From Escherichia coli (lineage in GTDB: Bacteria > Pseudomonadota > Gammaproteobacteria > Enterobacterales > Enterobacteriaceae): a stretch of 64,000 nt of DNA. Positions within the stretch are counted from its first letter, which is position 1; each line of letters opens with the position of its first letter. Made by a program: the position numbers and the translations under genes. The notes below the pieces were generated by a model. That model saw only the letters and a program-made list of their open reading frames with translations. It searched no databases and was not told where the DNA came from. Below are positions 19,699 through 23,061 of the stretch, one piece after another. The DNA is taken from the NCBI RefSeq assembly GCF_003018255.1, contig NZ_CP027440.1; one strand, 5' to 3'.

Positions 19699-20988
19699 TT
19701 ATTTGTCTGTTATATCCGCGTCTTCTGCGTCCAGCACCACTTCTTCAGGGCGCAGCATACTAATCAGTTTGAAGATCAAACTTAAGCCGATACCGACGAT
19801 GGTCGCCAGCGCCATACCTTTCAGCTCCGCCGCGCCAATGTTTACCTTCGCGCCACTGACGCCGATGATCAAAATAACGGAAGTCAGGATCAGGTTCTGT
19901 GCTTTGTTGTAATCCACTTTCGATTCGATCAACACACGAATACCGGAAGCACCGATGACACCGTAAAGCAGCAGCGAAACGCCGCCCATCACCGGCAATG
20001 GAATCATCTGGATAGCTGCAGCCAGTTTACCGACGCAGGAAAGCAGGATAGCGAAAATCGCCGCACCGCCGATAACCCAGGTACTGTAAACACGGGTGAT
20101 CGCCATCACGCCAATGTTTTCTCCGTAAGTGGTGTTTGGCGTGGAGCCAAAGAAGCCGGAGATCACGGTCGACAAGCCGTTAGCAAACATCGAACGGTGC
20201 AGACCTGGATCGCGCAGCAGATCTTTTTTGACGATATTAGCCGTTACGACCAGGTGCCCTACGTGTTCGGCAATAACCACTAACGCCGCTGGTAGAATAG
20301 TCAGAATGGCAAACCACTCGAAGCGCGGCGTATAGAGGGTCGGCAGCGCAAACCAGTGAGCATTAATAATCGGCGTGGTATCGACAATTCCCATTGCGAA
20401 AGAGAGCGCGTACCCCACCAGCACGCCAATTAAAATCGGGATAATTGCCAGGAAACCACGAAACAGCACGGAACCTAAAACCGTGACCGCCAGGGTGGTA
20501 ATAGAGATGATGATGGTTTTGGAGTCTGGCGTTTGCCCTTCAGCCGGGAGTAAACCCGCCATACCGGCAGCTACGCCCGCCAGCTCCAGACCGATGACGG
20601 CAACGATTGCGCCCATTGCCGCAGGTGGAAACAGCACGTCCAGCCAGCCGGTCCCCGCTTTCTTCACGATAAAAGAAACCAGGCAGAACAGCACGCCGCA
20701 CATAATAAAGCCGCCCAGCGCAACTTCATACCCCAACGGCAACAGTAACAATACCGGTGAAATAAAGGCAAAGCTGGAACCAAGATAAGCCGGAATTTTC
20801 CCTTTACAGATGAAGAGATACAGCAGTGTTCCTATACCGTTAAATAACAGTACAGTCGCCGGGTTAATATGAAATAAGACGGGCACCAGGACGGTTGCAC
20901 CAAACATGGCGAACAAATGTTGCAAACTAAGCGGGATTGTCTGTAAAAGTGGCGGTCTTTCACTCACCCCGATAGCACGGCGCGTCAT
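19699..20988 (-). CDS. uraA: Uracil:proton symporter (NCS2 family)
   Basis: ORF 19699..21030; probable start at [16 protein letters not shown] for a 429-aa product. Confidence 0.9.
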
Positions 20989-21029
20989 AGTATTATCCTC
21001 TGTATTATGTGTTATAGGCGCTTTACTCA

Positions 21030-21066
21030 AAAAAAAGCCGACTCTTAAAGTCGGCTTTAATTATTT
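21030..21066 (-). terminator. Intrinsic terminator/attenuator between upp and uraA
   Basis: Stem agccgact / agtcggct with loop cttaa; T7 run follows on the minus strand. Confidence 0.7.
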
Positions 21067-21073
21067 TTATTCT

Positions 21074-21700
21074 TTATTTCGTACCAAAGATTTTGTCACC
21101 GGCATCGCCGAGGCCCGGAATAATGTATCCGTGCTCGTTCAGTCCCTGGTCAATCGATGCAGTATACAGTTCGACGTCCGGGTGCGCTTTTTCCAGCGCA
21201 GCGATACCTTCTGGCGCAGCGACCAGCACCAGAACTTTGATGCTGCTGCAGCCCGCTTTTTTCAGCAGGTCGATGGTCGCGATAACGGAACCACCGGTTG
21301 CCAGCATTGGGTCAACGATCAGCGCCATACGCTCATCGATGTTAGAAACCAGTTTCTGGAAGTACGGTACCGGCTCCAGCGTTTCTTCATTACGGTACAT
21401 ACCGACGACACTGATGCGCGCACTCGGAACGTTTTCCAGCACACCGTCCATCATCCCAAGACCCGCACGCAGAATTGGCACAACGGTAATTTTCTTACCT
21501 TTGATCTGGTCGATTTCTACCGGGCCGTTCCAGCCTTCGATAGTGACTTTTTCCGTTTCGAGGTCGGCGGTCGCTTCGTAAGTCAGCAGGCTACCCACTT
21601 CGGAAGCGAGTTCGCGAAAGCGCTTGGTGCTGATATCTTGCTCACGCATCAGTCCCAGCTTGTGTTTGACGAGTGGGTGTTTGACTTCCACGATCTTCAT
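21074..21700 (-). CDS. upp: Uracil phosphoribosyltransferase
   Basis: ORF 21074..21727; probable start at [14 protein letters not shown] for a 208-aa product; upstream of uraA. Confidence 0.92.
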
Positions 21701-21726
21701 ACTCTTTCTCCTTTGAGGGGCAGCCA

Positions 21727-21771
21727 CAAAAAAAATCGACGGATTATACCTCCTTTCTTCAAGGCGGCAAT
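21727..21771 (-). promoter_or_regulatory. upp promoter with U-tract initially transcribed region (UTP-sensitive reiterative transcription)
   Basis: On the minus strand: TTGCCG (-35), 16-nt spacer, TATAAT (-10), then cgaTTTTTTTTg (plus-strand A8 at 21728-21735). Confidence 0.6.
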
Positions 21772-21945
21772 ATTATTTTCGTTGACTTTAGTCAAAATGA
21801 TAACGGTTTGAGATAAAGTTATTTTATATTCAAATGGTTATGGAAGAAGATTATTCCATCCGAAAACGATCCTTTGCCCTAGTACAAGTATTCTTTCGCC
21901 GCGCGCCTGGGGAAAAGACGTGCAAAAAGGTTGTGTAAAGCAGTC

Positions 21946-21961
21946 TCGCAAACGTTTGCTT
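21946..21961 (+). promoter_or_regulatory. PurR operator (pur box) in the purM control region
   Basis: tcgcaaacgtttgctt with palindromic core gcaaacgtttgc, ~65 bp upstream of the purM start. Confidence 0.8.
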
Positions 21962-22006
21962 TCCCTGTTAGAATTGCGCCGAATTTTATTTTTCTACCGC
22001 AAGTAA

Positions 22007-23061
<1,055 letters not shown>

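Follow-up and report, generated by a model that had tools for sequence, protein, structure and literature searches.

The segment at 21727-21770 on the minus strand of the window, a stretch of 64,000 nt from an Escherichia coli contig, is very probably the sigma-70 promoter of the upp-uraA pyrimidine-salvage operon, which is self-regulated by UTP without a repressor. The sequence of this segment, its identity to E. coli K-12, its position before upp and its conservation at fixed spacing in other species were observed directly. For the strain of the window, the start sites and the response to UTP are suggested by identity of sequence, and the UTP dependence and the stuttering are taken from the literature. 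The mechanism of the upp promoter is already known and the copy in the window represents its ordinary wild-type form with a run of eight T's (T8). The promoter elements and the neighbouring features are compiled in Table 1.

Table 1. Positions of the upp promoter elements and of the neighbouring features in the window.
Feature	Position	Strand	Remarks
-35 hexamer TTGCCG	21770-21765	(-)	4/6 matches to TTGACA; 16-nt spacer before the -10 hexamer
Spacer CCTTGAAGAAAGGAGG		(-)	16 nt, between -35 and -10; read from the sequence
-10 hexamer TATAAT	21748-21743	(-)	perfect consensus
Discriminator CCGTC	21742-21738	(-)	pyrimidine/GC-rich, 5 nt between -10 and the first start site
G6, upstream start site	21737	(-)	6 nt after -10; position from the sequence
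A7, downstream start site	21736	(-)	7 nt after -10 (modal distance); position from the sequence
T8 tract TTTTTTTT	21735-21728	(-)	template strand A8; slippage-prone homopolymer
G closing the T8 tract	21727	(-)	
Initially transcribed region (ITR) GATTTTTTTTG	21737-21727	(-)	identical to the upp-uraA ITR given in PMC7039003
Leader, remainder	21701-21726	(-)	37 nt in total from G6 to the upp ATG
Shine-Dalgarno AAGGAG	21713-21708	(-)	
upp CDS	21074..21700	(-)	uracil phosphoribosyltransferase, 208 aa; ATG at 21700; RefSeq annotation
uraA CDS	19699..20988	(-)	uracil:H+ symporter, 429 aa; second gene served by the upp promoter
Hairpin between upp and uraA	21029..21058	(-)	11-pair stem and T8 tail; terminator-like
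purM and purN	GTG of purM at 22025		upstream of and divergent from upp

An earlier note on this DNA had placed the upp promoter, with an 8-nt U-tract at the transcription start, at 21727-21771 and had described a TTGCCG/TATAAT pair with a spacer of 16 nt followed by GATTTTTTTTG. Reading of the minus strand confirmed this succession of elements. The range was correct to within one base, the surplus 5′ base being harmless, and the T8 tract is present, but it begins at +3 when counted from the G start or at +2 when counted from the A start and not at +1. When the region 21000-22300 was scanned with the sigma-70 consensus, the upp promoter was the top site with 10 of 12 matches. Runs of eight T's alone are unremarkable in the window (4 found vs 5.9 expected); the pattern TATAAT-N4-8-ATTTTTT was found once against an expectation of 0.02, the full composite promoter pattern once against 0.00, and the 11-mer GATTTTTTTTG has a single exact copy. 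The promoter elements are thus present at their exact spacing, and the composite motif lies far beyond chance. The assignment of TTGCCG as -35 hexamer with a 16-nt spacer is plausible, but the hexamer is weak (4/6) and weakly conserved across species and genera.

The ITR of the upp-uraA operon has been given as 5′-GATTTTTTTTG (PMC7039003), and upp was among the first cases in which UTP-dependent reiterative transcription was described (PMC6245113). Together with pyrBI and codBA it has been assigned to a group of promoters at which long reiterative RNAs are made with no switch back to canonical transcription and elongation (PMC7039003), and for upp and codBA the stuttering is described as non-productive and as triggered indirectly by start-site switching at excess UTP (PMC12709180). 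Regarding the choice of start sites, the modal position is 7 bp after the -10 hexamer and purines are preferred (PMC5730371). From these rules, G6 and A7 are predicted to be usable starts in the window, where two adjacent purine candidates lie at 6 and 7 nt after a sigma-70 -10 hexamer, and they are the only good candidates because all later positions are T. A literature search for genome-wide transcription start coordinates near upp, which was made with coordinates that were 2 nt off, yielded nothing relevant.

In 1997, Tu and Turnbough reportedly identified the G and the A of GATTTTTTTTG as the two upp starts and named them G6 and A7 by counting from the -10 hexamer; high UTP is said to favour A7, with release of AUUUUn products, and low UTP to favour G6, with elongation of the transcripts. 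The spacing in the window, TATAAT followed by 5 nt, G and A, corresponds exactly to this numbering. The established mechanism comprises two steps, namely UTP-sensitive selection between G6 and A7 and subsequently stuttering of the A7 transcripts only. In the strain of the window, RNA polymerase would open the promoter at TATAAT and would start at either the G (21737) or the A (21736). With abundant UTP, initiation at A7 would be favoured because U is the second nucleotide of the A7 transcript. This short A-U(n) RNA would form only a weak hybrid with the A-tract of the template and would slip backwards, the polymerase would keep adding U residues (AUUUUn), and the RNA would be released before upp is ever reached. 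With scarce UTP, initiation would move to G6 and give productive GAUUUUUUUUG... transcripts. A transcript beginning with GAUUUU... would be anchored by an extra, stronger G:C pair and would not slip, so that it could be elongated normally via the 37-nt leader into upp and uraA. Due to this use of G6 at low UTP, the uracil salvage enzymes would be made when pyrimidines are limiting.

K-12 is the strain in which this mechanism was worked out, and the segment from the -35 hexamer to the ATG is 100% identical, letter for letter, to that of K-12 MG1655. The 325-bp intergenic region between upp and purM carries 10 substitutions relative to K-12 MG1655, none of which lies between the -35 hexamer and the ATG; the nearest is located 5 nt upstream of the -35 hexamer, where the window has T and K-12 has G. 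In the K-12 genome, G6 and A7 correspond to positions 2620909 and 2620908. The Upp protein is identical to that of K-12, with 8 synonymous nucleotide differences in upp, and UraA and PurM each differ from their K-12 counterparts by one residue, which is V411M in UraA. Two marks of an upp-type promoter, the ITR and identity to K-12, were therefore both found, and the segment is also located as such a promoter should be, directly upstream of upp and with uraA as the next gene; upp and uraA have been named as the upp-uraA operon (PMC7039003). The claims of the earlier note on function can be judged from these data. Its attribution of the promoter to upp is supported by the K-12 identity of the downstream protein and by the RefSeq annotation of the gene as upp, and the comparison with the K-12 promoter that it had proposed revealed no difference. 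Identity to K-12, the published ITR and the described non-productive initiation together sustain both its statement that the regulatory region is intact and its statement that the region matches the established upp mechanism, although the latter had left out the start-site switch.

A start of upp at GTG 21727, nine codons further upstream, had been proposed in the list of open reading frames (21074-21727) and was rejected as an artefact of the ORF-calling procedure; as in K-12, upp truly begins at ATG 21700. The GTG at 21727 in this list begins with the G that closes the T-tract motif. The hairpin at 21029-21058 on the minus strand is terminator-like, although upp and uraA are described as an operon. 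The only Rfam matches of this hairpin, at 21025-21111, are sub-threshold and of generic leader or terminator type (Trp_leader with E = 0.0065, STnc240 and others). On the other side of the promoter, a PurR-box-like palindrome, TCGCAAACGTTTGCTT, is present at 21946-21961 on the plus strand and is identical in K-12. It is followed just downstream by a -10-like hexamer TAGAAT (21969-21974), beyond which the GTG of purM is found, and it is presumably the known purMN operator.

A 501-bp query spanning the region was compared with 5,426 complete E. coli genomes, of which 5,424 were matched, many of them at 100% identity. Every matching genome is annotated with upp and purM in RefSeq, so that upp was recorded at this place in 5,424 of 5,426. 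Subsequently, the exact 85-mer from the -35 hexamer to ATG+11 and its versions with seven (T7) or nine (T9) T's were queried against these 5,424 genomes. The T8 form was shared by 4,736 genomes (87.3%), T7 was found in 439 (8.1%) and T9 in 19 (0.35%); the remainder of about 230 genomes (about 4.2%) carry flanking SNPs, for example TTGCCG>TTGCCT or C>G at the first base of the spacer. T7 occurs on at least 4 flanking haplotypes; the type strain ATCC 11775 carries it, and it was met again in related clinical isolates that different groups had sequenced. T9 is concentrated in O157:H7.

The explanation that T7 is a homopolymer assembly error was largely rejected, because two control homopolymers of 8 bases in the window vary far less. 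For the T8 run of the upp terminator any difference was recorded in 88 of 5,426 records (1.6%), and for an A8 run within the bepA coding sequence an indel was seen in just one of 40 evenly spaced rows, the last (at most about 2.5%). In the T7 genome ECO11 the control tract was perfect, and the recurrence of T7 across laboratories and its presence in the type strain also oppose an assembly error. Given the low variation at the control homopolymers, the polymorphism of the T-tract is probably real and recurrent, and T7 is probably a genuine allele. Since T7 is the sole form in many other genera, regulation is probably not abolished by it, and tract length may plausibly have a graded effect. T7, T8 and T9 coexist in E. 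coli on several haplotypes, even within O157:H7, and one or another of them is fixed in different Enterobacterales genera. It could be imagined that tract length is a naturally tunable setting of pyrimidine-salvage regulation, a rheostat working slowly in evolution, or a contingency-like switch, through slippage mutation at the very tract on which RNA polymerase slips; this idea is considered speculative and rather unlikely. If it were true, the rheostat would act on the expression of upp-uraA and hence on the uptake and activation of uracil and 5-fluorouracil.

For the comparison between species, one representative genome per species was scanned with a degenerate pattern of the Upp N-terminus, which yielded 120 upp loci of Gammaproteobacteria, and the upstream 200 nt of each locus were extracted. 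The module consisting of a -10 hexamer, 5 nt, GA and a T-run was found in 68 of the 120 loci, with T7 in 33, T8 in 21 and T9 in 6. The -10 hexamer is TATAAT in 58 of these 68 loci, and GA precedes the T-tract, with the G6/A7 spacing kept, in 60. The counterparts of the discriminator (CCCGC, CCGGC, CTCGC, TCCGC) always comprise 5 nt. In its stricter form TAnnnT-N5-GA with at least seven T's, the module lies upstream of upp in 55 of the 120 loci; among 18,916 tiles of 110 nt from the same loci, upp sites included, it was detected in only 50. It is present in nearly all Enterobacterales sampled and in essentially every genus, including Citrobacter, Klebsiella, Enterobacter, Pantoea, Erwinia, Serratia, Yersinia, Hafnia, Edwardsiella, Providencia, Photorhabdus, Xenorhabdus and Dickeya. 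Outside this order it is carried by Aeromonas (TATGAT-TCCGC-GA-T7) and Photobacterium (T6-7), and among the 120 loci it was not found in Vibrio, Shewanella, Orbaceae and most Pasteurellaceae. Little variation is seen in the 5-nt gap and the GA, whereas the flanks and the -35 region diverge; the T-tract lies 20 to 58 nt from the ATG but keeps its distance to the -10 hexamer. A fixed distance to the -10 hexamer combined with a variable distance to the ATG is what is predicted for a device coupled to initiation and not for a leader-RNA element.

Several loci deviate from this module. The type strain of Escherichia albertii carries TATAAT-CCGTC-T-A-T8 and has a T at the G6 position, so that the productive start used at low UTP, as it is defined for E. 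coli, would be missing. GG-T7 is present in Photorhabdus and GCG-T8 without the A in Ca. Pantoea persica; these forms and that of E. albertii are possible natural variants of the switch. In two Pectobacterium loci a repeat-like insertion rich in GC (…GGGCCGCCGCAAGCGGTG…GCG-TTTTTT) takes the place of the -10 hexamer and discriminator, so that the tract persists without the conserved promoter ahead of it, and a T7-8 tract lies further upstream (about 109 nt). The upp promoters of Vibrio, as seen for example in three of the loci, have TATAAT-CTGAAGGTTTG(T/A)TT in common, which replaces the long T-tract. The GGTTTG start region of these promoters resembles the three-T type of pyrBI and carAB P1 and may represent a different reiterative design. 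The upp leaders of Orbaceae (five loci from Gilliamella, Zophobihabitans and Schmidhempelia) share a conserved inverted repeat, CTCAGTGG … CACTGAGG, the 3′ arm of which covers the ribosome-binding site; through its structure, this repeat could control upp translation and so stand in for the T-tract device in this family.

The T-tract of the window could also be explained without a UTP-sensitive switch. In an ordinary constitutive promoter it would be an incidental AT-rich stretch of the 5′-UTR with no regulatory role, and T8 runs, which by themselves are not rare in the window, are compatible with such an origin. However, the tract is found at a fixed 7 nt from the -10 hexamer and after GA in about 55-60 species, in surroundings that diverge. 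Moreover, the published mechanism rests on exactly the sequence GATTTTTTTTG (PMC12709180, PMC7039003), Cheng et al. (2001) declare in their title that regulation needs the long T-A tract, and according to the literature pyrimidine regulation is lost when the tract is shortened. An incidental tract is for these reasons regarded as highly improbable. A tract that acts after initiation is very unlikely as well. It could be part of a leader RNA element, working through structure, protein or sRNA binding or translational control, or it could promote productive slippage that gives heterogeneous full-length mRNAs. Productive reiterative initiation is widespread in bacteria (PMC12709180) and the G6 transcripts include the tract, but upp is explicitly classed as non-productive (PMC12709180) and the conserved spacing is that to the -10 hexamer and not that to the Shine-Dalgarno sequence or the ATG. 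In addition, the upp leader showed no significant RNA structure, the 58-nt 5′ end folding no better than shuffled sequences (MFE -7.5 kcal/mol, z = +0.96), and no Rfam family was matched at 21700-21770 even at E<=1. With neither a structure nor a curated family of the kind expected for a riboswitch, an attenuator or a PyrR-type site, no alternative cis-regulator is evident at this leader.

The tract might finally have its role on the opposite strand or for the adjacent gene, as the tail of a terminator, as a bent-DNA or UP element, or as a site for a nucleoid protein at the divergent purMN promoter. It does lie within the intergenic region shared by upp and purM, with the PurR-box-like palindrome about 210 bp away. 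Yet no terminator-like hairpin adjoins the tract on either strand, the start codon of purM (22025) is about 290 bp distant, and no upstream gene reads into the tract on the minus strand, which leaves this explanation a negligible likelihood. The preferred reading, which none of the data contradict, remains that of a promoter at which UTP-sensitive start selection is followed by non-productive stuttering.

As the control region of upp-uraA is intact and of wild-type form, the strain of the window should resemble K-12 in the regulation of uracil salvage and of 5-fluorouracil sensitivity. For the window itself the value of this result is one of annotation only. The map of the -10/N5/GA/T7-9 module provides independent evolutionary support for a mechanism that was established in one strain, and it shows where the design of repression without a repressor is used and that it is replaced in Vibrio, Shewanella and Orbaceae. 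What is added here is confined to this cross-species map of conservation and to the T7/T8/T9 polymorphism, both of them modest extensions of the known mechanism.

The closest known system is the upp-uraA promoter of K-12 (Tu & Turnbough 1997, J Bacteriol 179:6665; Cheng, Dylla & Turnbough 2001, J Bacteriol 183:221); the window carries this very element in a different E. coli strain, with no difference within the promoter, the same ITR GATTTTTTTTG and the same downstream gene. The promoter of codBA (Qi & Turnbough 1995) likewise combines UTP-sensitive start switching with non-productive reiterative transcription on a T-tract (PMC12709180), but its ITR is 5′-ATTTTTTG (PMC7039003), with T6 instead of the T8 of upp, and it serves a cytosine permease/deaminase gene that is not present in the window. 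At pyrBI (Liu, Heath & Turnbough 1994) and carAB P1 (Han & Turnbough 1998), UTP-dependent, non-productive stuttering also takes place at the transcription start. In contrast to upp, these promoters have only three T's (AATTTG and GTTTGC, respectively), high UTP triggers the stuttering directly and without start-site switching (PMC12709180), and at pyrBI an attenuator is additionally present. Nucleotide sensing by reiterative transcription at initiation is shared by pyrG of Bacillus subtilis (Meng, Turnbough & Switzer 2004; PMC7039003), whereas there a G-tract (GGGC) is used, low CTP is sensed, and the stuttering is productive in that the extra G's form an antiterminator, so that the logic is opposite to that of upp (PMC7039003).
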